64,000 bases of DNA from Thermoanaerobaculia bacterium (GTDB lineage: Bacteria > Acidobacteriota > Thermoanaerobaculia > Multivoradales > Multivoraceae), in assembly GCA_022822365.1 (NCBI GenBank), contig JAJEBV010000050.1, positions 411-64,410 on the forward strand, written 5' to 3'. Below, piece by piece: positions 1,428 to 59,053 of the stretch. Position 1 is the stretch's first letter, and each line of letters opens with the position of its first letter. The notes beneath the pieces were generated by a model. That model did not search any database. It saw nothing but the letters and a program-made list of their open reading frames with translations, and was not told the DNA's origin. The translations under genes and the position numbers were made by a program.

Positions 1428-2351
1428 TCAAGGCTCGGCCCTCGATCCCAGCGGCGGCTGGGCGCGCAGGCGCTCGATGTGCTGTTCGATCGCGGCCTGG
1501 GCCTCCCGGGAGAACTGCAAGTGGCGTTCCGCACCCTCGCGGTCGCCGAGGCGGGCGAGGGCGAGGCTGAGCTGGTAGTGCCCCTTGATCGACTGGGTCT
1601 CGACGGCGACCGCTCGCGTGAGCGCTTCCCGGGCCTCGTCGAAGCGACCTTCCTTCACGCGAGCCGTTCCGATCGTCACCAGCGCCGTCGGATGGTCGGG
1701 ATTGACCGCGAGAGCCCGGTCCGCCAGTCGGGTTGCTTCGTCCAGGTCGCCGAGTCCCTCGACGGCCTCGGACATGGTGGCCAGCGCCTCCACGTTGCCG
1801 GGCTCCAGCCGCAGCGCCACGGCCAGCGCTTCCCGGGCCTCCTCGAAGCGGTCCACGCGGTTGAGCGCCAGCCCGAGACCGATGTGGGTCAGGGCTCGAC
1901 GCGGGTCGAGGGCCGCCGCATCCTGGAGCACCTCGGCCGCCTGCGCCATCTCGCCCACCTGCATGCGGGCCACGCCGAGCAGGTAGGCGTACTCCGCCTC
2001 TCCGGGGTGCATCCGGGCCAGCGGCTCGAGCGCCAGGATCGCCTGGATCGGGTTGCTTCGGCCGAGGGAGAAGCGGGCGTAGGCGTTGAGGACGTCCTCG
2101 GAGTTGGGCGCCAAAGTGATGGCGCGGCCGAGCGCTTCGGCGGCGGCTTCGGGTTGGTTGCGGCCGGCGAGGGTGCGGGCCTGGTCGAGGAGTGAGCGGA
2201 CGGACTCGGTCGGCGCGGCTTCGGGCTGGGCGGTGAGGGTGGTTGGGGCGAGGAGGAGGGAGAAGAGGGCTGCGCGGAGGAGGGGAACCGGCCTGCGGCC
2301 GGCGCGTTTCCTGGCCGCCTTCGGCGGCAGCGGGTCAGAGGACCCGCGCAC
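1428..2351 (-). CDS. TPR-repeat exported protein (start taken as GTG inside repeat element)
   Basis: The ORF track frame 1428..2366 shows multiple TPR-like helices (AEAL..A, YAYLLG, GLALNR, ...). The hydrophobic signal core '[24 protein letters not shown]' has no in-frame ATG or GTG downstream until about residue 118. The only plausible start is GTG at 2351-2349 inside the repeat, 10 nt after the upstream gene's stop. Confidence 0.6.
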
Positions 2352-2358
2352 CCAGCGG
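2291..2358. repeat. REP/MITE-like repeat, half-element (internal segment + F-arm 'GGCGGCAGCGGGTCAGAGGACCCGCGCACCCAG')
   Basis: Matches the right half of the full elements at 57611-57796 and 58251-58436. The arm is a hairpin GCGGGTC-AGAG-GACCCGC followed by the GCGCACCCAG tail. It lies in-frame in the 5' end of the TPR gene. Confidence 0.8.
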
Positions 2359-2362
2359 AAGG

Positions 2363-4633
2363 TCACTGGTCGGACCTTCTCTTGAGTCGCCGGAAGATCT
2401 CGAACTGCTCGCGCGCCTTCTCGCGGTCGCCGAGCTTCTGGTAGGCTAGGCCGAGCTGGTTGCGGATGTTGGGATCTTCCGGCGCCAGTTCCGCGGCCGC
2501 GAGCAACTGCGCGGCCGCCTCGTCGACGCGGCCGTCCTCGAGCAGGATCTTGCCGCGGAGGTAGCGGGCATCGACGAAGTCGGGTTCCGCGTCGAGCACG
2601 AGTTCCACTTCGCGCAACGCGGCCTGGGGCTGGTTGTCGAGTTCGAGGACGGTGGCCAGGACGTAGCGCGACTGGTGGTCGGCGGGATGGGAGACCAGTT
2701 CGGCGCGCAGCGCGGCGCCGGCTTCCTCGAGGCGGCCCTGGCGGAGATAGATGTTGCCGAGCGTGGCCTGCGCCTCGGCGACGTCGGGCCGCAGTTCGAT
2801 CGCGCGCTCCAGGTGCTCCACCGCGGCCTCGAAGTCGCCTTCCTGGGCTGCCGCCTGGCCGAGCAGCACGTTGAGTTCAGGCCAGTCCGCGTGCTCGGCG
2901 AGCAGGCGGTTGAAGATCGGCTGCGCCTCGACGGTCCGTCCGCTCCGGACCAGGGCCAGGCCGTAGGCGTACTGGAGCGAACGGTCGGCGGCGCGGGCCG
3001 GATCGGTGGCCAGCAGCTCCGCCGCGCGGTCGTAGACCTCGGCGTTGAGCCAGGCCAGAGCGAGCATCCGCCGCAGCGCGAGGTCGTCTGGCTGCCGCTC
3101 CAGCGCCGTCGACAGGGGCGTCGTCGCCTGCCCGAACTGCCCGGCGTTGAACCGGGCGACGCCCAGCGAGTACTGGACCCTCGGGAAGCCCGGATCGACC
3201 GAGGCGGCCTGCTCGAAGTGACCCGCGGCCCGGGTGAAGCGCCGGGCCTGCGTCGCCATCACGCCGAGATTGAACGAGGCGCGGGCGAGAGTCGTTCGCG
3301 CCGTTCGCACGAGCTGTGCCCGAACCTCCGGCGAGAGGCCGGAGACCGGCGTCTCGCTGAAGACGGACAGGCCGACGACCCCGGCCGACGGTTCCTTGCC
3401 ATGGCCGTCCAGGTAGTTCGACATGCGATCGCGCGAGGTCTGGGCCAGGGCCACCGAGAAGCGCTCGGCGGCCTCGAAGTGAGGCAGCGCCCGCGCCTCG
3501 TCTCCGGTGCGGCGCAGCGCCAGGGCGAGCTGGTAGTGGAGGCTCTCCATCTGGTTGGCGTTGAACGAGCCGCCGTAGCCGCCCTCCGCCAGGGCGATCG
3601 CGCTCTCGAGCGCGGTCGCCGCTTCCCCCGGCCGGTCGAGGCCGAGGAGAGCCCGGCCCAGATGGTGCAGCGCGTTGGGACGCGTGGACGTCGACTCCAC
3701 CGCGATCTCCAGAGAGGCCAGCGCCTCCTCGAAGCGCCGGGCATCGACCAGCACCATTCCCAGGTAGAGGTGGTTCACCGGATCCTCGGGCGAGATGCGG
3801 CGCTCCTCCTTGAAGTGGTCGATGGCCTCCTCGACGGCGCCGCGGCCCCGGTCCAGGAGCTCCACGGTCCCCAGGTAGAAGCGGGCACGCGGCACCCGCG
3901 GTTCTTCCTCGATGGCGCGTTCGAGCGCCTCGCGGGCCTTCCCGTACTCGCCGTAGTCGCGGTAGGTCCTGCCGATCAGAATCCAGGTCTGCGGAATCGG
4001 ACGCTCCTCGGCCACGTCCCGGAAGAGCCTCTCTGCGGCCTCCGGACGCTCCAGGCGGAGGTAGCCGCTGGCGAGGGCGAATCGGGTTTCCACGTCTTCC
4101 GGCGTGGACTCGACGGCTCGCTCCAACTGCTGCACCGCCATCTCCGGCTGGCCGCTCGCGTTGAAGGCCCGGGCGAGGAGCCGCACGGCGCGACCGTCTC
4201 CCGAACTGCGCGCCAGCAGACGCCGGAGGTGGTCCGCCGCGCCATCGGGATCGCCGCGCTCAAGCGCGAGTTCGGCGAGGGCGAGCAAGGGGCGACGCGC
4301 TTCGAGGGCGGAGACGAGGGCGCGTTCGTAGGCGGTCTCGGCCTCGGCCGGGGCGCCGCCGGCGCGCTGCAGGTCGCCGAGCAGCAGCCAGCCTTCGAGC
4401 AGGGCCTCCCGGTACCAGCTCTCGGCCGCCTGCGGTTCGTCGCGGCGAAGCATGGTCTCGGCCTCCGACAGGGCGCGCTGCATGGCGGCGTCGGGCGGCT
4501 CTTCCTGGGCCGGCGTCGACGCCGGCGCCGCGACCGCAAGAACCAGGGTCAGACCGCCAAAGCGGAGCCGGCCTGACGGCCGGCGCGTCTTTCCCGCCGC
4601 CTCCGGCGGCAGCGGGTCAGAAGACCCGCGCAC
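2363..4633 (-). CDS. large TPR-repeat exported protein (about 756 aa)
   Basis: Same frame as track ORF 2363..6391 but only the C-terminal about 750 aa is protein-like, with many TPR repeats ('AEAQATLGNIYLRQGRLEEA', 'NIRNQLGLAYQKLGDREKAREQF'). The signal core 'GGLTLVLAVAAPASTPAQEE' is preceded only by repeat-derived codons. GTG at 4633-4631 inside the repeat arm is the nearest in-frame start. The upstream 5' part of the track ORF is Arg-rich junk overlapping the VWA gene. Confidence 0.65.
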   Translation of the reverse strand: MRGSSDPLPPEAAGKTRRPSGRLRFGGLTLVLAVAAPASTPAQEEPPDAAMQRALSEAETMLRRDEPQAAESWYREALLEGWLLLGDLQRAGGAPAEAETAYERALVSALEARRPLLALAELALERGDPDGAADHLRRLLARSSGDGRAVRLLARAFNASGQPEMAVQQLERAVESTPEDVETRFALASGYLRLERPEAAERLFRDVAEERPIPQTWILIGRTYRDYGEYGKAREALERAIEEEPRVPRARFYLGTVELLDRGRGAVEEAIDHFKEERRISPEDPVNHLYLGMVLVDARRFEEALASLEIAVESTSTRPNALHHLGRALLGLDRPGEAATALESAIALAEGGYGGSFNANQMESLHYQLALALRRTGDEARALPHFEAAERFSVALAQTSRDRMSNYLDGHGKEPSAGVVGLSVFSETPVSGLSPEVRAQLVRTARTTLARASFNLGVMATQARRFTRAAGHFEQAASVDPGFPRVQYSLGVARFNAGQFGQATTPLSTALERQPDDLALRRMLALAWLNAEVYDRAAELLATDPARAADRSLQYAYGLALVRSGRTVEAQPIFNRLLAEHADWPELNVLLGQAAAQEGDFEAAVEHLERAIELRPDVAEAQATLGNIYLRQGRLEEAGAALRAELVSHPADHQSRYVLATVLELDNQPQAALREVELVLDAEPDFVDARYLRGKILLEDGRVDEAAAQLLAAAELAPEDPNIRNQLGLAYQKLGDREKAREQFEIFRRLKRRSDQ

Positions 4634-4640
4634 CCAGCAG
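4563..4640. repeat. REP/MITE-like repeat, half-element (internal segment + F-arm)
   Basis: '...gccggcctgacggccggcgcgtctttcccgccgcctccGGCGGCAGCGGGTCAGAAGACCCGCGCACCCAGCAG'. Same family as the other copies. Confidence 0.8.
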
Positions 4641-15026: not shown

Positions 15027-16658
15027 ATGCTGACGGCGAAGATCACGACCCTCGACTGGACCGTCGTCGCCCTCTACTTCGCCGGCGTCTTCGCCATCGC
15101 GCTCTGGGCCATCCGGCGGGTCCGGCACGGCGAACGCACCTCGTCGAGCTACTTCCTCGCCGGCCGCAACGTCGGCTGGTTCGTCGTCGGCGCTTCCCTC
15201 TTCGCCTCGAACATCGGCTCGGAGCACCTCGTCGGACTGGCCGGCACCGGCGCCCAGAGCGGCCTCGTTCTCGGCCAGTTCGAGCTCCAGGCCTCGCTGA
15301 TCCTGCTCATTCTCGGCTGGCTCTTCGTGCCGTTCTACGTCAAGAGCGGCATCTTCACGATGCCCGAGTTCCTCGAGCGGCGCTACTCGCCCGCGGCCCG
15401 CTGGTACCTCTCGGTGATCTCGGTCATCGGCTACGTCCTGACCAAGATCTCGGTGACGATCTACGCGGGCGGCGTCGTCTTCGAGACCCTGATGGGCATC
15501 AACTTCTGGACGGGCGCCCTGGTGGTCGTCGTGATCACGGGGGTCTACACCGTCCTCGGCGGTCTCCGCGCCGTCGTCTACACGGACCTCCTGCAGGCGA
15601 TCGTCCTGATCGTCGGCGCTTCCACCGTGACGATCCTCGGCCTCGCCGAACTCGGCGGCTGGCGCGTCATGGTCGAGACCGCCGGTCCCGGCTTCTTCGA
15701 CATGTGGAAGCCGATGTCCGACCCGGACTTCCCGTGGACCGGCATCGCCTTCGGCGCGCCGATCATCGCGGTCTGGTACTGGTGCACCGACCAGTTCATC
15801 GTCCAGCGGGCGCTGTCGGCCCGCGGCATCGACGACGCCCGGCGCGGCACGATTCTGGCCGGCTTCCTCAAGCAGTTGCCGCTGTTCCTGTTCGTCGTGC
15901 CGGGCGTGATCGCCTACTGCCTGGCCCAGTCCGGGAAGCTCGAACTCGCCTCCTCCGACCAGGCGCTGCCGGCCCTGGTCGTGGCGCTCCTGCCGGCGGG
16001 CTTCAGGGGCCTCGTCGTCGCCGGCCTGCTGGCGGCCCTGATGAGCAGCCTCTCCTCCGTTTTCAACTCCTGCTCGACGCTGATCACGATCGACATCTAC
16101 AAGAAGCTCCACCCCGGCGTCTCGGAACGCCGCCTGGTCCTGGTCGGGCAGACGGCGACGATCGGCCTGGTCGGCCTGGGACTGCTCTGGATCCCGCTGA
16201 TGCAGAACATCTCGGGCACGCTCTACCAGTACCTCCAGAGCGTCCAGGGGTACATCTCGCCGCCGATTACCGCGGTGTTCCTGCTGGGGCTCTTCTGGAA
16301 GCGCCTCAACGCCCAGGGCGCGATCGCGTCACTCGCCGTCGGCTTCGTCCTGGGCATGGGCCGGCTCATCGCGGAGCTGAACAAGGACAGCCTGAGCGGC
16401 TTCCTCTACACCTTCGCCGACATCAACTTCATGCACGTCGCGATCTTCCTGTTCCTGATCTGCGCCGCCGTGCTGGTCGCGGTCAGCCTCTGGTTCCCGC
16501 CGCCCTCCGAGCAGCGCGTCGCCGGCCTGACCTGGAGCCGGGCCGGCAACGCCGACCTCCTGGCCGAATCCGACCCGGCCAAGCGCCGGCTGGACCGGAC
16601 GCTGTCGGTCGTTCTGGTGCTGATCGTCGCCGCGGTGATGGTCTACTTCTCGGGGTAG
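15027..16658 (+). CDS. sodium:solute symporter (SSS family, SGLT-like sugar transporter)
   Basis: SD 'GAGGAGAA' precedes ATG. 'YFLAGR' and 'GSEHLVGLAGTGAQSG' motifs typical of SGLT/SSF, with 13-14 TM helices. Confidence 0.9.
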   Translation: MLTAKITTLDWTVVALYFAGVFAIALWAIRRVRHGERTSSSYFLAGRNVGWFVVGASLFASNIGSEHLVGLAGTGAQSGLVLGQFELQASLILLILGWLFVPFYVKSGIFTMPEFLERRYSPAARWYLSVISVIGYVLTKISVTIYAGGVVFETLMGINFWTGALVVVVITGVYTVLGGLRAVVYTDLLQAIVLIVGASTVTILGLAELGGWRVMVETAGPGFFDMWKPMSDPDFPWTGIAFGAPIIAVWYWCTDQFIVQRALSARGIDDARRGTILAGFLKQLPLFLFVVPGVIAYCLAQSGKLELASSDQALPALVVALLPAGFRGLVVAGLLAALMSSLSSVFNSCSTLITIDIYKKLHPGVSERRLVLVGQTATIGLVGLGLLWIPLMQNISGTLYQYLQSVQGYISPPITAVFLLGLFWKRLNAQGAIASLAVGFVLGMGRLIAELNKDSLSGFLYTFADINFMHVAIFLFLICAAVLVAVSLWFPPPSEQRVAGLTWSRAGNADLLAESDPAKRRLDRTLSVVLVLIVAAVMVYFSG

Positions 16659-16671: not shown

Positions 16672-16812
16672 CACTGGGTGCGCCGGCGTCCCCGCCGGCT
16701 GCTGAGGAAACGGGTCGGCCGGAGGCCGGCTCCGCCTCCGTTTCCGCTGGGTGCGCGGGTCTTCTGACCCGCCGCCGCCGAAGGCGGCTTTGAATCGCCG
16801 GCCGAAGGCCGC
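16672..16812. repeat. REP/MITE-like repeat (B-type head 'CACTGGGTGCGCCGGCGTCCCCGCCGGC' + R-arm + internal segment)
   Basis: 'CCGCTGGGTGCGCGGGTCTTCTGACCCGCCGCCGCCGAAGGCGGCTTTGAATCGCCGGCCGAAGGCCGCC' is the reverse complement of the F-arm/internal consensus. It lies between the symporter stop and vapB. Confidence 0.8.
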
Positions 16813-16873
16813 CAATTCTCCCGCAGCCGAACGTCATCTTGACAGCTCTGGTGAATAGCATCATGATGCCTCC

Positions 16874-18551: not shown

Positions 18552-20080
18552 GGGCTGTCTCCTGTCGCGGTGGCCGCGAACGCGGAGGTCCGTTCGCAGA
18601 CCGTCTTCACGTCGCAGTAGAAGTCGAACGAGTGGCGGCCGCCCTCGCGGCCGATGCCCGAGTGCTTCGTGCCGCCGAACGGCGTCTCCAGGTCGCGAAC
18701 GTAGAAGCAGTTGACCCAGATCGTGCCGGCGCTGATCCGCCGCGAGAGACGGTCGGCGCGGGCCTCGTCGCCGGTGAAGATCATCGCGGCGAGCCCGTAG
18801 TCCGTCGACTCGGCGAGCGCGATCGCTTCCTCGTCGCCCTCGAACGTCTGCAGGGTGAGCACCGGCCCGAACACCTCCTCGCGGAGGATGTCGGCACCGG
18901 GCGGCACGTCGGCGAACAGGGTCGGCGGATAGTAGAGCCCGCCGCTGCTCTTCCCGCCGAAACGGAGCGCCGCCCCCTGGGCGAGCGCCTTCTCGACGTG
19001 GCTTTCGACGCGCGCCAGCGCGCGAGGATGGATCAGCGGGCCGTAGGTCGTCGCGGCTTCCCGCGGGTCGCCGACGCGGATCGCCTCGACTTCCGCCAGG
19101 AACCGCTCCATGAAGGCCTCGAGGCAGCTCCGCTCGATCAGCAGCCTGGTTCCGGCCAGGCAGACCTGGCCCGAGTTGTCGTACTGGTAAGCAGCGGTTC
19201 GGGCAGCCGCCTCGAGGTCGGCGTCGGCGAAGACGAGGAACGGCGACTTGCCGCCGAGTTCGAAGGAGACGGGAGTGAGCTCCGCCGCCGCGGCGGCCCC
19301 CACCGAGCGGGCGGTCGCCGGCGAGCCGGTGAAGGCGATCCGGTCGACGCCGGGGTGGCCGGTCAGGAGAGCCCCCGTCTCCGGCCCGCCGTGGACGATG
19401 TTCAGCACTCCCGGCGGCAGCCCGGCCTCCTCGGCCAGGTCGCCGAGCAGCGAGCAGGTCAGCGGCGCCCACTCCGGCGGCTTGAGGACGACCGTGTCGC
19501 CGGCGGCGAGCGCCGGGCCGACCCGCCAGGTCGCCAGCATGAAGGGCGCGTTCCAGGGCGTCGACACGGCGACGACCCCGGCCGGATCGTGACGGACCGT
19601 GTTCCGCTCGCCGCCGTGCAGCGTGCGGGCCGGCTCGGCCAGGCGCGACACCGCGTACTCGGCGAAGAAACGGAAGTTCATCCCGCCGCGCGGGATCACC
19701 CGCTCCCGCATCGCCTCCAGCAGGGAACCGTTGTCGACGGTCTCGACCTGGGCGATCTCGGCGGCCCTCCGCTCGACCTCGGCAGCAAGGCGCAGCAGGT
19801 ACGGCGCCCGGCCCTCAGGACCCAGCGCCGCCCAGTCCGGGAACGCGTCGCTCGCCGCCGCGACGGCGGCGTCGACCTCCGACGCCCCCGCCTCGGGAAG
19901 CTCGGCCAGCTTCCAGTCCCAGTCGATCGGCGAACGGACCTCGAAAGCGGCGCCGGCACCGACCCGCCGGCCGCCGATCAGGTGGCCCGTCGGTACGGCG
20001 ACGCCTTCGACATCGACGCGCGCCGCCGGAACGCCAGATGCCGGCCGGAAGGCCGGCGCACCCAGTGGTTCGGCCGTCAC
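18548..20080 (-). CDS. NAD(P)-dependent aldehyde dehydrogenase (hydroxymuconic-semialdehyde dehydrogenase-like)
   Basis: 'HLIGG', 'FTGSPATARSV', 'ELGGKSP' and the catalytic 'GQVCLAG' motifs. Start taken as GTG overlapping the upstream stop in 'GTGA' (20080-20077). The upstream part of the track ORF is junk. Confidence 0.8.
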   Translation of the reverse strand: MTAEPLGAPAFRPASGVPAARVDVEGVAVPTGHLIGGRRVGAGAAFEVRSPIDWDWKLAELPEAGASEVDAAVAAASDAFPDWAALGPEGRAPYLLRLAAEVERRAAEIAQVETVDNGSLLEAMRERVIPRGGMNFRFFAEYAVSRLAEPARTLHGGERNTVRHDPAGVVAVSTPWNAPFMLATWRVGPALAAGDTVVLKPPEWAPLTCSLLGDLAEEAGLPPGVLNIVHGGPETGALLTGHPGVDRIAFTGSPATARSVGAAAAAELTPVSFELGGKSPFLVFADADLEAAARTAAYQYDNSGQVCLAGTRLLIERSCLEAFMERFLAEVEAIRVGDPREAATTYGPLIHPRALARVESHVEKALAQGAALRFGGKSSGGLYYPPTLFADVPPGADILREEVFGPVLTLQTFEGDEEAIALAESTDYGLAAMIFTGDEARADRLSRRISAGTIWVNCFYVRDLETPFGGTKHSGIGREGGRHSFDFYCDVKTVCERTSAFAATATGDSP

Positions 20081-20868
20081 GAACCCGCCGCCTCCGCCGC
20101 CGCCATCACCTCGGCCTCGTCCTCGGGCACGCAGAGCGCGACATGCAGCGTGTTGCCGGTCACCTCGGGCTGCTCGCCGACCGGCTGCAGGTCCCGGTCC
20201 AGCTCGACGATCGGGTTGCGCAGCGTGCCGATCTCGTCGCAATGCACCTCGACCACGTCGCCCGGCTCGACCGGTCGCGAGTTCGCCGGCGTGCCGGTCA
20301 TGATGACGTCGCCGGGTTCGAGCGTGATCAGCCGGCTCAGGTCGGCTACCTGGTAGGCGAACGAGAACAGGAGGTCTTCGCCGGTGTTCCCCTGCTGCAC
20401 CACCTCGCCGTTGACCAGCGTGCGCAGCGTCAGGTCGTTCGGGTCGACGTCGCCGGCATCGACCAGGGCCGGCCCCATCGGCCCGAAGCCGTCCTGGCCC
20501 TTGACCCGCAGCATCGAGCCGCGGTCGGCGTGCCGGAAGTCGTGGATGCCGAAATCGTTGACCAGCGTGTAGCCGCGAACGTAGTCGAGCGCCTCCTCGA
20601 TCGCCACGCCGGTCGCCCGCCGGCCGATGACGACCGCGATCTCCCCCTCGTAGTTCAGGAAGCGGCAGCCGCGCGGCCGCGCCACGGGCGCCTCGTGAGC
20701 GCTCAGCGAGGAAGTCGGCTTCATGAAGTAGGACGGCACCTCCGGGATGCGCTCCATCTCGTACTCCACGCAGCGCGAGCGGTAGCTCAGGTGGACGCCG
20801 ATGATCTTCGAGGGCGGATCGATCGGAGGCAGCCAGGCGCCGTCGCCGGCGCGGCGCTCGTGTTTCAT
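20077..20868 (-). CDS. fumarylacetoacetate hydrolase (FAH) family protein (HpaG/NagK-like hydrolase or decarboxylase-isomerase)
   Basis: 'KIIGVHLSYRS...YFMKPTSSL...GEIAVVIGR...DYVRGYTLVNDFGI...GTPANSRPVEPGDVVEV' is the classic FAH-fold signature. Start at ATG 20868 overlaps the ADC gene stop in 'ATGA'. Confidence 0.75.
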   Translation of the reverse strand: MKHERRAGDGAWLPPIDPPSKIIGVHLSYRSRCVEYEMERIPEVPSYFMKPTSSLSAHEAPVARPRGCRFLNYEGEIAVVIGRRATGVAIEEALDYVRGYTLVNDFGIHDFRHADRGSMLRVKGQDGFGPMGPALVDAGDVDPNDLTLRTLVNGEVVQQGNTGEDLLFSFAYQVADLSRLITLEPGDVIMTGTPANSRPVEPGDVVEVHCDEIGTLRNPIVELDRDLQPVGEQPEVTGNTLHVALCVPEDEAEVMAAAEAAGS

Positions 20869-21668
20869 CGCAGTTGCTCCCGGTCGTGCGGGCCGACGAC
20901 CTCCACGCCGTCGACGCTGTAAGCGAAGGAGAACCGGAAGCCGCGGTGCACCTCGCGCGGCGCGATCGCCTGCAGGTCCTCCAGCGTGTCGCCGCCGAAG
21001 GCGAGCCTGGCCGGCCCCTCCCAGACCTCGGTCGAGTCCCGGTCGTAGCCGCCGGCCCGGACCATCTCGAACACCGTGGGTTCGAGCCCGGCCGCGGCGG
21101 GGAAGTGGCGCGTGTTGAACATCGGCGGAGCGTTCACCGTCGGTCCGGTTTCGCTGATCCCCTCGAGTTCGACGACGGCGCGGACGATCTGGCGGTCGTT
21201 CGCGGTGCAGGTCGCCCCGAAGCGGGTGCCGGGAGCGAGCCTGCACGCCGCCTTGCCGACCTCGAAGCTGCGGGTCATGTGGATCGAGCCGAGCTTCTTC
21301 GGGAAGCCCTGCACCCAGCCGCGGAACATCGCGAAGTCCTTGTCGACCCAGATGTAGACGCAGCGCGACACCGGCTCGCCGCGCCACGTCGCGCCGACGA
21401 CGACAAAGCACTCCTTGTACTGGGACTGGATCGGGTCCTCCAGCTCGTGCAGGTCGTCGGAGCAGGACTGCCAGTCGGCGAAGATGACGCAGGCCATGTC
21501 CGGCCGCTCGGCCGGTTCGAGCTCCGCCGGCAGCAGGGCCGTGATGGCGTCCGGATCGGTGCTGTACTCGACGATCAGGAAGTCGCAGGAGTAGTGCCAG
21601 GGCGGCGCCGGCACGAGGCCGCCGCGTCCGCTGGCGGAGAGCGGGCCGCTGTAGCCCTTGAGTGGCAT
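20865..21668 (-). CDS. acetoacetate decarboxylase (ADC) superfamily protein
   Basis: 267-aa ORF: 'PPWHYSCDFLIVEYSTDPDAI...' with a Lys-containing ADC-like core. Assigned by fold-family resemblance only. Confidence 0.55.
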   Translation of the reverse strand: MPLKGYSGPLSASGRGGLVPAPPWHYSCDFLIVEYSTDPDAITALLPAELEPAERPDMACVIFADWQSCSDDLHELEDPIQSQYKECFVVVGATWRGEPVSRCVYIWVDKDFAMFRGWVQGFPKKLGSIHMTRSFEVGKAACRLAPGTRFGATCTANDRQIVRAVVELEGISETGPTVNAPPMFNTRHFPAAAGLEPTVFEMVRAGGYDRDSTEVWEGPARLAFGGDTLEDLQAIAPREVHRGFRFSFAYSVDGVEVVGPHDREQLR

Positions 21669-29293: not shown

Positions 29294-29441
29294 TGGGTGC
29301 GCGGGTCTTCTGACCCGCTTCCGCCGGAGGCGGACCAAGCGCCGGCCGAAGGCCGACAGTCTCCCCGGCCTGCGCCGCACCGCGGCGCCTGGACCGGGGG
29401 GCGGGTCATAAGACCCGCGCACCCAGCGTCTGCCGCCGGCG
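29289..29441. repeat. REP/MITE-like full element (R-arm ... spacer ... degenerate F-arm)
   Basis: 'CCCACTGGGTGCGCGGGTCTTCTGACCCGC...GGCGGGTCATAAGACCCGCGCACCCAGCG'. It fills the gap between the amidohydrolase stop (29448) and the cyt-c fusion gene. Confidence 0.8.
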
Positions 29442-31450: not shown

Positions 31451-31467
31451 TCTCGCGGCGAGGACTC

Positions 31468-33165: not shown

Positions 33166-33272
33166 ACTGGGTGCGCCGGCACCCTCGCCGGCTCTCGGGC
33201 GACGCCGCGGAGCGGTGGCGACCGAGGTCAACTCGCGAGGCCGCAGGCCTCTCCTTCGCACCCAGTGGCGCC
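33163..33272. repeat. B-type REP-like element ('CACTGGGTGCGCCGGCACCCTCGCCGGC ... GCACCCAGTGGCGCC')
   Basis: Shares the 'CTGGGTGCGC' head. It lies between the TonB receptor stop (33272) and the amidohydrolase start. Confidence 0.7.
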
Positions 33273-38262: not shown

Positions 38263-39552
38263 ATGACGAGTCGACGCCTGGTTGGTTTTGCGTTCTGCCT
38301 GGTCTTTGCCGCGGCGGCCCACGGCGCTGCTGACGCGGAAGGGCCGACATTCTATGAGGATGTCCTGCCCATCCTGCAGCAGAACTGCCAGGAGTGTCAC
38401 CGGCCGTCGGGCAGCAAGATCTACCGGGGCGGCGTGCCCATGTCGCTCACGACGTACGAGGAGGCCCGGCCCTGGGCGCGCTCGATCGTCCGCATGACGG
38501 CGTCGAAGGAGATGCCGCCGTGGGACGCCTCCGAGCACTTCGACGGCGTGTTCCGGAACGAGCGCGGCCTGACCGACGGGGAGATCGCAACGCTGAAGCG
38601 CTGGGTCGAGGCGGGCGCGCAGTCCGGCCGTCCCGAGAACGGCCCCGCGCCCATCGAGTGGCCCGACGACGACGGCTGGGTGTTCACCGATCCCGACCTC
38701 GTGCTCAAGATGCCCGAGCCCTACTACGTCGAGGACGACATCAAGGACGTCTACACCAAGCACCGCCTGATCCTGACTCCGGACCTCCTGCCCGAGGACA
38801 AGTGGGTGCAGGAGATCGAGTTCCGCCGCGGCAGCGAGCTCGTCCACCACTTCAACATCTTCGTCAAGAGTCCGGACGACGAGGAGACCCGCGGCGACGG
38901 GAACTACCTCGGCGGCGCCACGTCAGGCTCGCCGCCGCACGTGTGGCCGGAGGGCTACGGCTCGCTGCTGCGGACCGGCGACACGCTGACCTTCGACCTG
39001 CACTACCACAAGGAGCCGGGCCCCGGCAGCGGCGGCTGGGACCAGTCGTCCATCGCGCTCAAGTTCGCGACGAAGCCGGTCGAGCACCCGATCCACTTCT
39101 TCCCGATCAGCAACTTCGAGTTCGAGATTCCGGCCAACCACGACTACTGGCACGACACGGCCGAACGGACGTTCGAACGCGACGTGACGATCCTCGGCAT
39201 GCTCCCCCACATGCACATGCGCGGCCGCGAGGCGAAGTACACCGTCCTCTACCCGGACGGCCGCGAGGAGCAGATCCTCCACGTGCCGGACTGGGACTTC
39301 GACTGGCAGGAGATCTACTGGTACGACGAGCCGAAGGTACTGCCCGCGGGCAGCACCCTGCGCATCGACATGTGGTTCGACAACTCGCCCGAGGAGGCGG
39401 AGCGCTGGGGCTTCAACCCGGACCGCGTCGTGACGTTCGGGCCGGAGTCGACCGACGAGATGCTGATGGGCTTCATCTCCTGCGTCTACAACGACGAGGA
39501 GCCGCCCAGGGCGCGCCTGCCCGGCGTGATCGAGACGACCGGCGGGGAGTAG
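38263..39552 (+). CDS. exported c-type cytochrome domain protein with C-terminal PHM/DBH-like (copper monooxygenase-like) domain, tentative
   Basis: SD 'GGGAGGG' precedes ATG and a signal peptide. Single 'CQECH' heme motif. C-terminal 'HFNIFV...HYHKEPG...HMHMRGR...DWDFDWQ' resembles the His-rich/Met copper sites of the peptidylglycine monooxygenase fold. This is fold-level inference only. Confidence 0.5.
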   Translation: MTSRRLVGFAFCLVFAAAAHGAADAEGPTFYEDVLPILQQNCQECHRPSGSKIYRGGVPMSLTTYEEARPWARSIVRMTASKEMPPWDASEHFDGVFRNERGLTDGEIATLKRWVEAGAQSGRPENGPAPIEWPDDDGWVFTDPDLVLKMPEPYYVEDDIKDVYTKHRLILTPDLLPEDKWVQEIEFRRGSELVHHFNIFVKSPDDEETRGDGNYLGGATSGSPPHVWPEGYGSLLRTGDTLTFDLHYHKEPGPGSGGWDQSSIALKFATKPVEHPIHFFPISNFEFEIPANHDYWHDTAERTFERDVTILGMLPHMHMRGREAKYTVLYPDGREEQILHVPDWDFDWQEIYWYDEPKVLPAGSTLRIDMWFDNSPEEAERWGFNPDRVVTFGPESTDEMLMGFISCVYNDEEPPRARLPGVIETTGGE

Positions 39553-39587
39553 GCGGAAGCGGGTCAGAGGACCCGCGCACCCAGCAG
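39552..39587. repeat. solo repeat arm (F-arm hairpin) between convergent genes, possible bidirectional terminator
   Basis: 'GGCGGAAGCGGGTCAGAGGACCCGCGCACCCAGCAG' starts at the stop codon of 38263..39552 and ends 8 nt before the stop of the minus-strand SBP gene. Confidence 0.6.
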
Positions 39588-47029: not shown

Positions 47030-47372
47030 GCGGGGCGGAGCCGGCCTTCGAAGCGGAGCCGGCCTGGCGGCCGGCGCGAGTAGATGGCGCACCCAACGGA
47101 GCGGAGCCGGCCTGACAGCCGGCGCGTGTTCCTGGCCGCCTGCGGCGGCAGCGGGTCAGAGGACCCGCGCACCCGGAGATAGGGCTGGGTGCGGGCGTGG
47201 TTCTGTTCTGGAACCGTCAGGGCGTCACTTCGAGCGGTGGGCTTGCAGTAGAGATGCTGGCTGCGGGAAGGGCCGTGCTCTGGGTGCGCGGGTCTTCTGA
47301 CCCGCTTCGGGCGCAGTCGCGGAGCGACGAAGCCCGAGACAAACAGCCACCGGCCGCAGGCCGGTGACCTTC
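47030..47372. repeat. composite REP/MITE-like repeat array (degenerate half + F-arm + about 100-bp spacer-2 + R-arm + tail), inverted partner of 50334..50600
   Basis: F-arm 'GGCGGCAGCGGGTCAGAGGACCCGCGCACCCGGAG' at about 47140-47175. R-arm 'CTCTGGGTGCGCGGGTCTTCTGACCCGC' at about 47278-47306. The spacer and tail are near-exact reverse complements of 50393-50550 and 50335-50395. Confidence 0.85.
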
Positions 47373-48712: not shown

Positions 48713-48795
48713 ACTGGGTGCGCCGGCGCCCCCGCCGGCTGTGGCCGCGGGTCTTCTGACCCGCGGAGGACAACGCGCCGCGAAGCGGCGACCAT
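48713..48795. repeat. B-type REP-like element + hairpin ('AAACTGGGTGCGCCGGCGCCCCCGCCGGC...GCCGCGGGTCTTCTGACCCGCGG...')
   Basis: Shared head and TTCT-loop hairpin. Lies upstream of gabD. Confidence 0.7.
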
Positions 48796-50333: not shown

Positions 50334-50600
50334 GTCACCGGCCTGCGGCCGGTGGCTGTTTGCCTCGGGCTACGTCGCTTCGCGACTTCGCCCGAAGCGG
50401 GTCGGAAGACCCGCGCACCCAGAGCACAGCCTTCCCAAAGCCAGCATCTCTACTGCAAACACACCGCTCGAGGTGACGCCCTGACGGTTCCAGAACAGAA
50501 CCGCGCCCGCACCCACGCCCTATCTCTGGGTGCGCGGGTCTTCTGACCCGCTCGCCGCCGAAGGCGGCCAGAGAACACGCCGGCCGAAGGCCGACCCTCA
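50334..50600. repeat. composite REP/MITE-like repeat array, inverted copy of 47030..47372
   Basis: '...CGAAGCGGGTCGGAAGACCCGCGCACCCAGAGC...spacer...CTCTGGGTGCGCGGGTCTTCTGACCCGCTCGCCGCCGAAGGCGGCC...'. Begins 10 nt after the gabD stop and runs to the PrpD-family gene stop. Confidence 0.85.
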
Positions 50601-51974: not shown

Positions 51975-52135
51975 GTCCGACTGTCGGTGCGCCGGCCTTC
52001 TGGCCGGCTGCCGCCGATGGCGGCCAGGTCTGAGCGCCGGCCGGAGGCCGGCACCGCTCCGACGGGTTCGGGCTCGTCGCTCCGCGACATCGCGCTCGAT
52101 GCCGGCCAGAAGGCCGGCGCACCGACAGTCGGCTC
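51975..52135. repeat. B-type palindromic element: 30-bp inverted termini 'GACTGTCGGTGCGCCGGCCTTCTGGCCGGC' ... 'GCCGGCCAGAAGGCCGGCGCACCGACAGTC' with about 100-bp spacer
   Basis: Perfect 30-bp terminal inverted repeats, each a GCCGGCC-TTCT-GGCCGGC hairpin plus a GGTGCGC head. Lies between the PrpD-family start and the ACAD stop. Confidence 0.85.
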
Positions 52136-53354: not shown

Positions 53355-53431
53355 GCGGTGGTCAACTGGTGGCGAGCACTACGGCGACCCCTGCTAGCGT
53401 CGCGAGCCACGGGGCCTAGGGAGTGGAGTCA

Positions 53432-53608
53432 ATGGAAGACCTGAGTGTACGTCGCCTGGAGGTGCGTGAGGAGAGCGAACCTTCCTTCGCCTCCCGGTGG
53501 AGGGGCAAGTTCCGGGAGTCACGCCGGGACGATGTGCGGTACAAGGTGCTCGCCGGCAAGTACCTTGCCGGTGCCACACGCGGGCGCTCGGCAGAGAAGG
53601 CCGAATGA
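53432..53608 (+). CDS. small basic hypothetical protein (58 aa) translationally coupled to HicB-like gene, possible toxin partner
   Basis: SD 'GGAGTGGAG' then ATG 53432. Its stop overlaps the HicB-like start in 'ATGA'. No similarity to HicA recognised. Confidence 0.3.
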   Translation: MEDLSVRRLEVREESEPSFASRWRGKFRESRRDDVRYKVLAGKYLAGATRGRSAEKAE

Positions 53609-53835
53609 AGTACAAGGGCTACATCGCCGCCGTCGACTACGACGACTCGGAAGGTCGTCTACAAGGCTGGACGGCCAACACCAGCCCCTATCCCATCGCG
53701 ACCTTTGAAGCGAACGACGCCGACGCGATGCGAAGCGAGTTCGAGCGTTCCATCGACGAGTACCTGGTGTCGTGCGAGGAGGACGGCGTGGAACCTCGAG
53801 CACCGCTTCCGGCTGTCTCCGTCCTGCGACGCTGA
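53605..53835 (+). CDS. HicB-like (UPF0150 family) antitoxin-type protein
   Basis: 'MKYKGYIAAVDYDDSEGRLQGWTANTSPYPIATFEANDADAMRSEFERSIDEYLVSCEEDGVEP' matches the characteristic HicB_lk_antitox N-terminus (KGY..V.YD.E.G...G). Confidence 0.6.
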   Translation: MKYKGYIAAVDYDDSEGRLQGWTANTSPYPIATFEANDADAMRSEFERSIDEYLVSCEEDGVEPRAPLPAVSVLRR

Positions 53836-54005
53836 TTCATGTGACGGCCGACGCCCAGCACTCTCGCCTCATCGGTCACATCAGACCGAGCGGTTGGAGG
53901 CAGTTCTCACGGATACTGTGGCCTGGATGGGGAGGGTTGATCATCGTTCATGTTTCAGTCTCCATGCGACCCGAGAGGTTCTGTCCCCCTGAGCTGGGGT
54001 CCTTG

Positions 54006-54419
54006 CTACGCCGGAGGGATGATGACCCAGTTCGAGTGCTTCGCAAACCATCTCCGGCGGCTCCTCGTCTTCGGACCGCAGACCAAGGCGTGGGCGGTTT
54101 CGTCAGGAAGCGGATCGGGATGGACCGTCTGCTGTTTCTGGCGGAACCTCTTGGCAGTGGTCGACACTAGACCGAAGCCCGGATGCCCGGCCATCACCCG
54201 GTCCGGGCGGCCGCCTTCCGCCACGATGATGTCCTCGCGATAGACAGACATGGGATCCTCGCGACGGTCGTCGTAGAAGGCTGCCGAAGAAAGCCGACGA
54301 CGTCCGCTGTTCTTGTCGGGCACGAAGTGCCTTGGTGGAATCCGCCTCAGCAGGTTCACGTCGTCGTCGATCTCTGGATCGTCGGGAAACCGCGCCCGGC
54401 ACTCTTCGGGCGATGTCAC
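54006..54419 (-). CDS. hypothetical protein (lower-GC islet)
   Basis: Protein-like composition only from about 54419 downward ('VTSPEECRARFPDDPEIDDDVNLLRRIPPRHFVPDK...'). GTG start lies 4 nt after the upstream stop. The 5' part of the track ORF overlaps the previous gene out of frame. Confidence 0.3.
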   Translation of the reverse strand: MTSPEECRARFPDDPEIDDDVNLLRRIPPRHFVPDKNSGRRRLSSAAFYDDRREDPMSVYREDIIVAEGGRPDRVMAGHPGFGLVSTTAKRFRQKQQTVHPDPLPDETAHALVCGPKTRSRRRWFAKHSNWVIIPPA

Positions 54420-54423
54420 GAGG

Positions 54424-54960
54424 TCAGTCTGAAGCCCGAGCCAACCACACGCGAAGGGCGGCGTCATTGGGGGCAAGGACCTCGTCCGCTGTCTCGCCGC
54501 TTGCCACATCTTCGGCAAACCAAGACGGCGGGATGTCGGGGCAGAACTCAACTTCGATATCCACTCCGCCTTGGTGCCATTCGAGTTGGATTCCCCCCGG
54601 AGCCGTCGGTACGACGGCGGGTGACGCCAAGTTCGGGATCGTTGTTGCGGCCTCGAGGAGGAACGTGAGTGCCTCCCTAAGGGACTCCTGAGAGATGGGC
54701 GCGGCATCGTAGGAGTTCCAGCCCCGAGGGAGTTGCAGTAGCTCGGCTGCCCGACGGATCGCCTCAAGTACGGGCTTCGACGGGAGTTGAGCCGCGTCGA
54801 TCAAGACGCGATACGGTCCACTATCAACTCGGAACCGCACCCCGGGCAGAGCAGGATCGCTCGCAAGTTGGCTCGACGCGCTCCACGATGTCGTGTGCTC
54901 GTCCGGCGAACCAAGCGGTTCAGAGAGAATCATGTGGCCCGATTGGGCTGTGTCAAGCAT
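54424..54960 (-). CDS. hypothetical protein (lower-GC islet)
   Basis: 178 aa with balanced composition ('LPRGWNSYDAAPISQESLREALTFLLEAATTIPNL...'). Overlaps the upstream gene by 8 nt. Confidence 0.45.
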   Translation of the reverse strand: MLDTAQSGHMILSEPLGSPDEHTTSWSASSQLASDPALPGVRFRVDSGPYRVLIDAAQLPSKPVLEAIRRAAELLQLPRGWNSYDAAPISQESLREALTFLLEAATTIPNLASPAVVPTAPGGIQLEWHQGGVDIEVEFCPDIPPSWFAEDVASGETADEVLAPNDAALRVWLARASD

Positions 54961-55771
54961 CTGTTCGCTCCCATAGACGATGCATCAAGCCAGTCGTCAG
55001 ATCCGCGAATCCGCGGACGACCCACTCTCGGCCCACGTCGAGAAACCCAAAGGCGCCTTCCAGTCCCTCCCCGGTCGGACGACCCCGCGCCATGAGCCGG
55101 AATGCCCATAGGCGTTTTCCGCTGGAATCCCATGCTGGCTGGACGAAGACGTGTAAGCGGCCGGCTTCATCCGGCATTCGGAATCGCCAGCTCAACGACA
55201 GGTCCTCTGGGACGGGCAGGAAGGAGGACTTCCGAAGCGGCTGCCAGTTCGCGACCAGCTTCTCCACGCGACTGAACTCCGGCTCATCCAGATCGACGTG
55301 GTTCACGTAGGTGACCTCGCACTGGTTGATCGAAAGGCCGTCCAGGCGTTGCTCGTTGAGGAATCCGACAAGAGCACGGACTTCACGCTTGAACTGGTCC
55401 CGAATCGTCTCGTACCGCGGATAGTGGTCCTGTGCACCCGTCTTGCGCCAGTTGTGGACGAATCGGTCAGGCTGAATCTGGAGCAGCTCTGTCTTCTCCT
55501 CGTTCAGAAACCACACACGCGGTGCAGGCGGTTTGTTGCCGAAGGCGATCGAGACCCCCTGGGGAGCAGGCGGGCCGAAATCTTCTTTGGCCGACTCGAG
55601 CGGAGGATGTTCTTCGATAAGAGGAAGTTGCTGCCGGTAGTTGCTCTGCCAGAGGAGCCCGACGTGAGCCGTTGTCAGTCCGGGCAAGGGCTCGAACTGT
55701 ACCGATAGCGCGACCTCCACAAGCGGCGGCTTGCGGAAGTCAGGCAGTCCGGGAGGCCGGCCCTTGGTCAC
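54953..55771 (-). CDS. hypothetical protein, resembles sporadically distributed TIGR04255-type family
   Basis: 272 aa with N-terminal 'PPLVEVALSVQFEP'. The family call rests on memory of the motif only. Confidence 0.45.
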   Translation of the reverse strand: MTKGRPPGLPDFRKPPLVEVALSVQFEPLPGLTTAHVGLLWQSNYRQQLPLIEEHPPLESAKEDFGPPAPQGVSIAFGNKPPAPRVWFLNEEKTELLQIQPDRFVHNWRKTGAQDHYPRYETIRDQFKREVRALVGFLNEQRLDGLSINQCEVTYVNHVDLDEPEFSRVEKLVANWQPLRKSSFLPVPEDLSLSWRFRMPDEAGRLHVFVQPAWDSSGKRLWAFRLMARGRPTGEGLEGAFGFLDVGREWVVRGFADLTTGLMHRLWERTDA

Positions 55772-55906
55772 AGTTCAGATGACGAGCGTTGCGGGGGCAC
55801 GTGCCGAAGCCGAGTACAGCAGAGCTTGAACCCTACCGAGCGAATCAAGACGGTATCACTTGGGCGAAGAGGCGCTGCGCCAGCCCCAAAACGGTCCGTG
55901 CGCCCG

Positions 55907-57610: not shown

Positions 57611-57796
57611 CCGCTGGGTACGCGGGTCTTCTGACCCGCCCCGGGTGAAGCCGCGGAGCGGCGGAGCCCGGAGCAAGGCGGCCGCCGGCGAAGCCGGCGA
57701 CGATACTGAAGCCGCCCGGAGGGAAGGTCGGCCCTCCGGCCGGCGTTTCAAAGCCGCCTTCGGCGGCAGCGGGTCAGAAGACCCGCGCACCCAGCA
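57611..57796. repeat. REP/MITE-like full element (R-arm + about 125-bp spacer-1 + F-arm), direct copy of 58251..58436
   Basis: 'CCGCTGGGTACGCGGGTCTTCTGACCCGCCCCGGGTGAAGCCGCGGAGCGGCGGAGCCCGGAG...GGCCGGCGTTTCAAAGCCGCCTTCGGCGGCAGCGGGTCAGAAGACCCGCGCACCCAGCAG', about 95% identical to the second copy. Confidence 0.9.
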
Positions 57797-57803
57797 GAAC
57801 TTC

Positions 57804-58166: not shown

Positions 58167-58250
58167 GACCGATCCTCCCTTGTGGCCGTTCGAGCCGGCG
58201 AAGCGTACCGGGAGACCGAGGCATGAGTAGCTGGGCGTGCGGGGTCCACT

Positions 58251-58436
58251 TCCGCTGGGTGCGCGGGTCTTCTGACCCGCCCCGGGCGGAGCCGCGGAGC
58301 GGCGGAGCCCGGAGGAAACTGCCGCCGGCGAAGCCGGCGACGATACTGAAGCCGCCCGGAGGAAGGTCGGCCTTCGGCCGGCGTTTCAAGGCCGCCTTCG
58401 GCGGCAGCGGGTCAGAAGACCCGCGCACCCAGCAGA
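58251..58436. repeat. REP/MITE-like full element (direct repeat of 57611..57796)
   Basis: Same arms and spacer as the first copy. The two copies bracket the csaA-like gene. Confidence 0.9.
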
Positions 58437-58488
58437 GGCAGCCAGCGGAGGGGCGATCGCCACCCCTCGTGGTAGAAACTTCGCCGCA

Positions 58489-58983
58489 ATGCCAGACCCT
58501 GACTTCTCCACCTTCCCCCTCAAGAAGAAGGGCAACCGCTACCAGGACTTCGAGGAAGGCCGCACCTTCCAGCACCACTGGGGCCGCACCCTCACCGAGG
58601 CGGACAACGCGCTCTTCGCCACGTCGACGATGCGGTTCACGCCGCTCTACTTCAACGCCGAGTACGCGCGCGCCCATGGCCACGACTCGGTCGTCATCGA
58701 CCCGCTGCTCGTGCTTTGCACCGTGGTCGGCATGTCGGTCGAAGACCTCTCCGAGGGCGGCGGGCCGTTCCTCGGCGTCAACCAGGTGAAGTTCCACCGG
58801 CCGGTCTACCCGGGCGACACGATCACCGCCACGAGCCGCGTCGTCGGCCGCCGCGAGTCCGGCTCGCGCCCCGCCTTCGGCATCGTCACCTGGGAAACCG
58901 AGGCCCTCAACCAGCACGGCGACATCGTCGTCAGCTACCAGCGCACCAACCTCGTCGCCAAGCGCCGGGAGCCCGCGTCATGA
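58489..58983 (+). CDS. MaoC-like (R)-hydratase/dehydratase (enoyl-CoA hydratase, hot-dog fold)
   Basis: 164 aa with hot-dog hydratase signature around 'HGDIVVSYQRT'. Confidence 0.75.
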   Translation: MPDPDFSTFPLKKKGNRYQDFEEGRTFQHHWGRTLTEADNALFATSTMRFTPLYFNAEYARAHGHDSVVIDPLLVLCTVVGMSVEDLSEGGGPFLGVNQVKFHRPVYPGDTITATSRVVGRRESGSRPAFGIVTWETEALNQHGDIVVSYQRTNLVAKRREPAS

Positions 58984-59053
58984 CGGCCGCCACTGGGTGC
59001 GCCGGCCTTCTGGCCGGCTTTCCGGCCTCCGCACCGTGCGTGGAACCAACGCC

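Follow-up and report, generated by a model that had tools for sequence, protein, structure and literature searches.

What is the short palindromic sequence that recurs, at roughly one locus per 4 kb, at the gene boundaries of an uncultured acidobacterium, and how does it spread? The DNA in question (the window) comprises 64,000 nucleotides of a Thermoanaerobaculia bacterium (contig JAJEBV010000050.1, positions 411–64,410) with a G+C content of ~70%, and makes up the greater part of a 71-kb metagenome scaffold (ENA ERZ23491076, KELL22-1 scaffold_715). A sequence-only reading had listed 15 loci that share a decamer fused to a GC-rich hairpin, and had described them both as REP-like (REP, repetitive extragenic palindrome) and as a miniature inverted-repeat transposable element (MITE). 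We find a modular family built from a 26-nt unit, which multiplies and turns over between close strains and which, with a probability of roughly 55%, is a lineage-wide family of the REP/BIME/REPIN kind (BIME, bacterial interspersed mosaic element; REPIN, REP doublet forming a hairpin).

The decamer CTGGGTGCGC occurs 18 times without mismatch in the window, where shuffled sequence gives an expectation of 0.27, and the 36-nt arm is matched 7 times at ≤3 mismatches against 0 expected. When a head with ≤1 mismatch followed by a perfect hairpin was required, 21 units were recovered, which together with degenerate and variant copies cover all 15 loci listed earlier. These counts confirm an interspersed palindromic family at gene boundaries and not low-complexity GC sequence. 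The elementary unit is 26 nt long and consists of an 8-nt head, CTGGGTGC, a perfect 7-bp GC stem and an all-pyrimidine 4-nt loop. The decamer is thus real, but only the octamer CTGGGTGC is the conserved head (the GC that follows it is the stem base), and one listed locus (51975–52135) carries the variant CTGTCGGTGC. Likewise, the A-type (GCGGGTC) and B-type (GCCGGCC) stems and the TTCT loop proposed earlier are present, but a third common stem, GCCGGCG, was located at 16674 and 48714 and a 6-bp stem variant at 33167, and TTCT is one of several loops (TCCC, TTCT, TTCC, TCCT, CTCT, CCCC and CCCT). The recurring 11-letter peptides of the six-frame translation are the A-type arm translated on its two strands.

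Constraint on the unit was assessed in the window plus ~1 Mb of related loci (numbered with the prefix L below). A perfect 7+4+7 hairpin follows directly after 184 of 272 exact heads; the hairpin-less heads number 81, against ~83 expected by chance from base composition. Loops are purine-free in 184 of 191 cases. The three main stem types are mutually compensating versions, and the stem varies by compensating pairs only, at positions 3 (CG 122, GC 67), 5 (GC 185, AT 6), 6 (CG 131, TA 60) and 7 (CG 86, GC 100). Because a free head and a symmetric stem are combined with an asymmetric pyrimidine loop, the unit is strand-asymmetric. The hairpin is flanked by CTGGGTGC on one side and by variable sequence (TGCC, ATCC, TTCT, CCCG) on the other, and a few recurrent accessory hairpins follow 3′ of the unit (for example GCCGCC-GAA-GGCGGC, GCGCCGC-GAA-GCGGCG and the nested CCGGGC..GCCGC-GGAG-GCGGC..GCCCGG).

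The unit is found solo, with accessory hairpins (half elements, 60–80 nt), as inverted doublets (heads-outward pairs of half elements, 134–186 bp), as head-to-head composites (two heads-inward arms around a 103-nt spacer, three in the window) and, in relatives, as tandem arrays; elements range from 60 to 340 bp, and most copies in the clade are single arms with a head at one end only. The half elements, full elements and composites of the sequence-only reading are all present in the window, but the length of ~185 bp assigned to full elements holds for two of them (57611–57796 and 58251–58436, ~186 bp) and not for 29293–29426 (134 bp) or 51977–52133 (~157 bp). The copies in the window are:

2291–2358, minus strand: half element of three hairpins plus head; unit 2330–2355, stem GCGGGTC, loop CTCT.
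4563–4640, minus strand: half element; unit 4612–4637 (GCGGGTC/TTCT), sense to both flanking minus-strand genes; folds as three separate hairpins (z = −3.6).
16672–16821, plus strand: two direct units, 16674–16699 (GCCGGCG/TCCC) and 16747–16772 (GCGGGTC/TTCT), with accessory hairpins, right after the stop of gene 15027–16658.
20040–20065, minus strand: solo B-type unit (GCCGGCC/TTCC) inside the annotated first codons of an aldehyde dehydrogenase (ALDH) gene.
29289–29441, arms on opposite strands: heads-out inverted doublet; units 29293–29318 (+) and 29401–29426 (−), 134 bp from 29293 to 29426.
31181–31450, arms on opposite strands: composite; unit 31229–31254 (−), 103-nt spacer 31255–31357, unit 31358–31383 (+).
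33163–33272, arms on opposite strands: doublet; unit 33167–33192 (+, 6-bp stem GCCGGC) and degenerate inverted head 33256–33265.
39552–39587, minus strand: solo A-type unit (39559–39584) filling the gap between two convergent stop codons.
47030–47372, arms on opposite strands: composite; units 47151–47176 (−) and 47280–47305 (+), spacer 47177–47279, degenerate extra arms with head-like sequence at 47087–47096.
48713–48795, plus strand: unit 48714–48739 (GCCGGCG/CCCC), a headless GCGGGTC-TTCT hairpin and a GCGCCGC-GAA hairpin.
50334–50600, arms on opposite strands: composite; units 50397–50422 (−) and 50526–50551 (+), spacer 50423–50525; an inverted copy of the 47-kb composite (93% complementary).
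51975–52135, arms on opposite strands: inverted doublet of B-type hairpins with the variant head CTGTCGGTGC on both arms; ~157 bp from 51977 to 52133.
57611–57796, arms on opposite strands: full 186-bp heads-out doublet; units 57614–57639 (+) and 57769–57794 (−).
58251–58436, arms on opposite strands: full 186-bp heads-out doublet; units 58255–58280 (+) and 58407–58432 (−).
58991–59040, plus strand: solo B-type unit (58993–59018) between two MaoC-hydratase genes.

Both strands of the doublet 58251–58436 were folded and gave −142 and −147 kcal/mol (z = −9 and −10), the fold being one long hairpin with internal hairpins. The inverted-arm arrangement is shared, by sequence alone, with 57611–57796, 29289–29441 and 51975–52135. 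Half elements fold as separate hairpins with the head free. The spacer found in the composites (103 nt) is a repeat in its own right, bounded by inverted ends of 10 nt (GCACCCAGAG...CTCTGGGTGC) and containing a palindrome (GGTTCCAGAACAGAACC); besides the three copies in the window there is one in L119 and none elsewhere among loci L002–L120. Direct tandem arrays of head plus hairpin, with a period of 33–54 nt and lacking unique spacers, were seen at L107:3957–4120, L069:1913–2060, L199:8211–8335, L035, L141 and L164.

Orthologous DNA from strains 88–98% identical (L113, L115, L116/L117 on scaffold_21, L119/L120, L086 and L240) shows how stable the copies are. The element 57611–57796 is absent from L113 and L115, and so is 58991–59040, where the hydratase genes overlap by ATGA. 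L119 holds the whole composite of 31181–31450 and L116/L117 a solo unit only, while 33163–33272 is absent from L116 and L119 together with the adjoining TonB-receptor gene (33272–35611). Where the window has the composite 47030–47372, L113 has a 62-nt solo element and L240 an empty site (TAG-9 nt-ATG); the place of 50334–50600 is taken in L113 by a full element of 185 nt with the GCCGGCG stem. Half elements occupy the sites of 58251–58436 (GCCGGCG type in L113, GTCGGCG in L115) and of 29289–29441 (in L116). The element 48713–48795 has a similar copy in L113 and is absent from L240, and the site of 39552–39587 holds 4.5 kb with three extra genes in L116 and L119. Conversely, L086 has a ~70-nt element where the window has 17 nt (1411–1427). 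The unit 20040–20065 is kept in L116 (at 19248–19273), and ~72 nt of 2291–2358 are 100% identical to the orthologous L086 copy although the flanks differ. In some comparisons hairpin 1 is exchanged while the head and hairpin 2 stay unchanged. A further dozen differences in presence or type were found in other pairs of related loci. Copies that are strictly syntenic and identical in relatives, which the sequence-only reading took as the mark of an ancient fixed structure, are therefore not what is seen. Since close strains differ in the presence, type and arrangement of copies at the same sites, the family is shown to be dynamic and not fixed, with multiplication and turnover taking place within Thermoanaerobaculia genomes. 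Each full element is a patchwork of independent hairpin modules, which are swapped between copies.

The position of the copies relative to genes was analysed with gene orientations from a gene call based on G+C at third codon positions. Solo units lie in 46 co-directional, 43 convergent and 11 divergent gaps, and those between co-directional genes are sense in 36 cases and antisense in 10. The head side faces a stop codon in 157 of 215 units, at a median distance of 28 nt. Copies thus accumulate right after stop codons in the sense orientation, a bias suggesting either that transcribed copies are of consequence to the host or that it tolerates them better in sense. Transcribed copies probably act as stem-loops of the 3′ untranslated region (3′-UTR) or between cistrons, and such a role would account for the bias. 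In a few genes whose annotated start overlaps the stop codon before it, a unit occupies the first codons.

The distribution of the family is broad within one lineage. A degenerate unit pattern matched more than 111 stretches in a species-representative genome collection, nearly all of them Acidobacteriota among the matches listed; the carriers among these are Thermoanaerobaculia metagenome-assembled genomes (MAGs), several 'Candidatus Multivorans' species and sponge-associated 'Holophagales' and 'Acidobacteria' bins. Complete chromosomes are among the carriers as well (OY762911.1, OZ220688.1, OZ244786.1, OZ246956.1 and OZ242353.1), the first three being unit-rich Thermoanaerobaculia. Isolated single matches outside the Acidobacteriota look like chance. 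The unit is carried by at least 120 stretches of a metagenome collection, and 2.9 million viral contigs gave 3 single matches. Among the named relatives of that genome collection, the closest is a MAG of the Thermoanaerobaculia (JAJEHN01, L086), ~94% identical over 3.7 kb. No unit was found in 21.7 kb of a 4.4-Mb relative (orthologous gene ~80% identical), so the family is not universal in the class. Extrapolation from the density in the window gives ~1,500 units per genome.

These properties were compared with those of the REP, BIME and REPIN-RAYT systems (RAYT, REP-associated tyrosine transposase) of Enterobacteria, Pseudomonas and Stenotrophomonas, including GTAG-tagged REPs (Di Nocera et al. 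2013, PMC3733652) and the REPINs of Bertels and Rainey 2011 (PMC3116915). Shared with these are a 20–40-nt unit in which a short conserved single-stranded tag stands beside a GC-rich hairpin, hundreds or more copies per genome, and the occurrence as singlets, as inverted doublets that fold as one long hairpin and as clusters. Also shared are the extragenic location, mainly in co-directional and convergent gaps, with ends that supply start or stop codons to the neighbours, vertical persistence in a clade with diversified stems, and strain turnover. The REP-like label rests on this tag-plus-hairpin anatomy, the arrangements, the post-stop position, the clade-wide persistence with diversified stems and the strain turnover. 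It fits anatomy and distribution better than the MITE label does, although the GTAG/CGTC tag is absent and a cognate RAYT was not found. The family differs from known REPs in its octamer tag CTGGGTGC instead of GTAG, its short perfect 7-bp stem with a constrained all-pyrimidine tetraloop, its strings of several independent hairpin modules, and its many insertions with 6–20-nt target duplications. No RAYT was found beside any of the ~400 units sampled here, a small sample in which ~0.8 would be expected. The host, an uncultured class of Acidobacteriota, differs as well, the literature consulted on this phylum giving only Y1 genes flanked by terminal inverted repeats (TIRs) (PMC3733652, PMC6006769). 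The REP superfamilies described so far are defined by one of two tags, GTAG or CGTC (PMC3733652). Because neither is present and any linkage to a RAYT is putative, the family is filed apart from them, as a variant of the same kind. No curated RNA family of Rfam 15 matches anywhere in the window at the gathering score, a tRNA scan of the window found none, and a full-text literature search with 10-mers and 18-mers of the repeat matched only unrelated papers; the family appears to be undescribed in the literature searched.

How would such a family spread? We propose that a trans-acting enzyme, encoded once elsewhere in the genome, would recognise head plus hairpin as single-stranded DNA. Tentatively, and with somewhat less than even odds, this enzyme would be an HUH/Y1 transposase of the RAYT or TIRYT (TIR-flanked Y1 transposase) type, acting at the boundary between head and hairpin. 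Homologous recombination, gene conversion and slippage between copies would then produce the mosaics, the swaps of stem type, the tandem arrays and the gene insertions flanked by duplicated units. Comparison of filled and empty sites revealed two classes of junction. In class 1, the head is already present in the empty site and the insert lies exactly 3′ of it with zero duplication: L113 and L115 have TCTG-CTGGGTGC-GGTT where the window (57611–57796) has TCTG-CTGGGTGC-[177 nt]-GGTT, and L198 has CTGGGTGA-GAGG where L188 has CTGGGTGC-[62 nt]-GAGG. A head is expected by chance about once per 12 kb per strand, so that accidental adjacency at class 1 sites is very unlikely. In 31181–31450, extra modules lie between a head and a hairpin that are directly joined in L116; the empty site at 33163 has a head-like GCACTCCAG, which is suggestive only. 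Class 1 junctions point to the joining of DNA at the head–hairpin boundary, as would be carried out by single-strand HUH enzymes next to hairpins. The ends of IS200/IS605 elements and the palindrome-associated transposable elements (PATEs) with their IS608/ISDra2 mechanism offer a parallel, in that a strand-specific hairpin stands beside a short conserved single-stranded motif and at least two insertions here lie exactly 3′ of a retained specific sequence without duplication. They differ in that the ends of full elements here are true inverted repeats and not similar hairpins on one strand, that the 'target' has 8 nt instead of 4–5 nt, and that other insertions are duplicated and had no prior head.

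In class 2, the empty site is headless and the filled site has a direct target duplication of ~5–20 nt, which often includes the start or stop codon of the neighbouring gene; the non-coding copy of the duplication is often decayed. The lengths, from about nine filled/empty pairs, are estimates, some of them imperfect or with uncertain bounds:

Window 58991–59040: at least 6 nt, CATGAC(GGCC).
L031: 6–7 nt.
L086: 8–9 nt.
L024: 9 nt.
L113 versus L240: ~10–12 nt.
L186: 12–15 nt; a deletion between repeats is possible instead.
L060: 14–20 nt.
L014 and L067: 15 nt.
L198: ~5–6 nt; an atypical element with a head and no standard hairpin.

Several observations weigh against a REP-like family driven by a Y1 enzyme. 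The headless, duplicated sites of class 2 are one, since Y1 'peel-and-paste' transposition does not predict target duplications of 6–20 nt; these duplications lie outside the HUH prediction and keep template switching and, less likely, a DDE-type MITE alive as rivals. Exact direct repeats flanking 201 copies are in only slight excess over mismatched controls, so most copies are old or were not made via duplication, and some 'empty' sites could be deletions between short repeats instead of ancestral states (e.g. L186 versus L230). The GTAG/CGTC tag is absent from both strands of the unit flanks. No transposase domain was found among ten open reading frames (ORFs) bracketed by units or gained beside them, and phmmer and a profile hidden Markov model, built on 14 RAYT/TIRYT sequences (five from Acidobacteria) from the supplementary alignment of PMC3733652, found no homologue in 1.0 Mb or in another 0.76 Mb from metagenome loci; none turned up in the window either. 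If the gene is single-copy and flanked by few units, however, only ~0.8 RAYT/TIRYT matches would be expected in the ~1.8 Mb around ~400 units, and the negative Y1/RAYT search is therefore weak evidence. Genes for Y1 transposases do occur in Acidobacteria, both of the TIR-flanked 'TIRYT' and of the 'class 3' kind (PMC3733652, PMC6006769).

Other searches bore on the same point. A Pfam scan of the 51 window proteins showed no transposase among the 25 families listed of 95 matched, a weak negative because families with a single member do not appear in that list, and regular-expression scans of six-frame translations for Y..NP and HUH...Y motifs gave nothing. In related loci, the reading frames that units flank belong to ordinary genes, which encode an exonuclease/phosphatase-family protein, a methyltransferase, a cytochrome c, a Mo-oxidoreductase, MoaA, a secreted protein without assigned function and an AAA/DUF4143 ATPase. 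A weak phmmer match in L157 was rejected as a chance pattern, the gene that holds it being apparently an unrelated housekeeping gene from a different organism. Identification with integron attC sites, dif/Xer sites or CRISPR was likewise rejected, there being no conserved core sites and no spacers, and the flanking genes being syntenic housekeeping genes.

Inverted repeats flanking the same 201 copies are about ten-fold enriched, largely owing to one subfamily in which an outer palindrome, GCGCGGCAGAA...TTCTGCCGCGC, encloses the unit, its edges often being CTAG/TAG (L012, L015, L016, L036, L075, L079, L099, L100, L198:3459–3553 and L060). When L060 is compared with L200, the left arm looks target-derived and the right arm looks like an inverted copy of the left.

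The family could instead have no dedicated transposase and consist of host-useful structural signals, such as mRNA 3′ stem-loops, the U-tract-less terminators of high-GC bacteria or binding sites of host proteins, which would spread by template switching, slippage and homologous recombination while selection keeps head, stem and loop. This explanation, which we consider somewhat unlikely, accounts for the strong sense and stop-proximal bias, for the stem kept by compensating changes and the pyrimidine loop that is kept with it, and for the orthologous copy of 2291–2358, identical in L086 while its flanks have diverged. Variable 6–20-nt duplications and junctions at shared 8-nt heads would fit microhomology-guided templated insertion, and tandem arrays with a 33–54-nt period, exchanges of hairpin 1 while the head before it and hairpin 2 after it stay the same, and the failure to find a transposase in ~1.8 Mb of unit-bearing loci are all consistent with it. 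Template switching by itself, however, falls short of explaining ~1,500 copies per genome (an extrapolated number) or an invariant 8-nt head across many genera, so that a sequence-specific partner is still needed, and gain and loss between strains 95% identical is fast for a selected regulatory site.

With distinctly lower probability, the head is the joining point of an undescribed head-directed insertion process, driven neither by a RAYT nor by a DDE enzyme, which adds hairpin modules and occasionally whole genes at CTGGGTGC. Hairpin-primed templated insertion or a novel single-strand nuclease may be considered as candidates, and elsewhere the process may insert with long variable duplications that regenerate the start or stop codon of the neighbour.

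The classical MITE of the sequence-only reading, with terminal inverted repeats of ~30 bp, is more doubtful again. It would make the elements deletion derivatives of an insertion sequence (IS) with CTGGGTGC-hairpin TIRs, moved in trans by a DDE transposase that makes target-site duplications. The sizes of 60–340 bp fit, the termini of full elements are inverted and complementary over ~44 nt at 84%, and flanking duplications exist (8–9 nt in L086 and L024, at least 6 nt at 58991–59040). In size, inverted termini of the full form, intergenic location and presence/absence polymorphism between strains the family indeed resembles Correia, ERIC/IRU, RUP and Nezha elements. But the fixed-length duplication that was sought did not emerge, the lengths ranging from 0 to ~20 nt (0, 6, 8, 9, 10, 15 and ~20 nt), most copies are one-headed, autonomous single arms that insert alone, and in two clean events the empty site retains the head. 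Neither the unit-bounded ORFs nor ~1.8 Mb of unit-bearing loci yielded an IS with matching ends, and no ORF with a transposase domain was found between units there. A single terminal motif across the whole class, combined with several stem types, is REP-like persistence and not the short-lived burst of an IS-derived MITE.

That there is no family at all, only generic GC-rich sequence or chance palindromes, has next to no probability: short GC hairpins are common in a genome of ~70% G+C and some weak repeat-finder families are chance matches in coding sequence, but this is refuted by the decamer and 36-mer counts, by a 26-nt unit in hundreds of loci of one clade and by stretches of 86–107 nt that the repeat finder gave as 93% identical between the 47-kb and 50-kb copies.

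Two further known systems share features with the REP-like family favoured here. Mycobacterial interspersed repetitive units (MIRUs) also lie between operon genes, overlap the stop and start codons of their neighbours, form direct tandem arrays and can be read through by ORFs. MIRUs are direct repeats without a head-plus-hairpin unit and are not palindromic doublets. CGTC-type REPs and the Rickettsia palindromic element (RPE) are abundant tagged palindromes without a known dedicated transposase (PMC3733652), and some of their copies are in frame within genes, as here in the signal peptide of the L116 amidohydrolase, in the ALDH gene (20040–20065) and in a 676-aa ORF. They differ in tag and structure, and in-gene copies here are a small minority at extreme N-termini, next to overlapping stop and start codons.

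The in-gene copies affect gene annotation. The annotated start of the ALDH gene overlaps the preceding stop (GTGA), and the gene reads through the B-type unit in both the window and L116. In the 33163–33272 element, gene 31468–33165 takes its GTG start from the CAC of CACTGGGTGC. The ORF 29448–31478 (−), a second amidohydrolase, is open through the whole 270-nt composite 31181–31450, and its gene call is 676 aa in the window and L119 versus 591 aa in L116. Almost certainly, the ~85 extra residues are either an artefact of annotation or an N-terminal extension of an unusual kind. At the orthologous position in L116 (11713–11738), an in-frame unit forms part of the n-region of the amidohydrolase signal peptide, and its loop is GCAA (Arg-Lys) and not the usual pyrimidine loop.

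REP-like elements are known mainly from Proteobacteria. The present family would add an abundant REP-like family, with a different tag and a modular build, in an uncultured and environmentally widespread acidobacterial class. It marks intergenic sites of strain difference, gene gain and loss included, and thereby bears on MAG assembly, strain typing and the annotation of gene starts, since gene callers read through the elements (~85 spurious residues on one amidohydrolase). A search for the responsible enzyme can start from the two kinds of junction and from the conserved 8-nt head. Should a Y1 transposase fail to turn up, the family would lend itself to asking how tagged palindromes can spread in its absence, a question shared with the CGTC-type REPs; if head-directed insertion were the true process, the repeats would drive intergenic remodelling and the gain and loss of genes throughout the class Thermoanaerobaculia.

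Differences in gene content were also noted between strains. Compared with strains ~95% identical, the window has an extra TonB-dependent receptor gene (33272–35611), an extra acetoacetate decarboxylase gene (20865–21668) and an extra amino-acid permease plus a longer GSDH-type gene (25139–27918), and it lacks a 4.5-kb block (DUF3604, a hypothetical gene and a sulfatase; L116:1619–6153), in whose place stands the solo unit 39552–39587. Two of these four differences of the window adjoin repeat units, as do several other gene-content differences between strains. At L113:8600–9903, a TraB/PrgY/GumN-family gene lies between two identical 48-nt copies of head, hairpin 1 and hairpin 2 and is absent from L115 and the window; this insertion looks like recombination at a unit. 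At L039:7129–7561, compared with L108, an insertion of ~430 nt lies beside a conserved unit and holds what appears, by the look of the sequence only, to be a Fic/Doc-type gene.

The site of 51975–52135 is occupied in L113 (14190–14290) by an unrelated palindromic repeat built on GCGACCATTCC/GGAATGGTCGC, which may represent a second repeat family in the lineage. Two stretches of the window, 53400–55900 and 61700–64000, are lower in G+C (~62–63% versus 70%) and contain short ORFs without Pfam matches, and the block at 53.8–55.9 kb is replaced by other genes in L113. A Gp49/HTH_37 pair, presumably a toxin-antitoxin system of the HigB/HigA-like kind, and an Mrr_N gene lie on the scaffold just outside the window; together with the low-G+C stretches, these adjacent genes may form a variable island.

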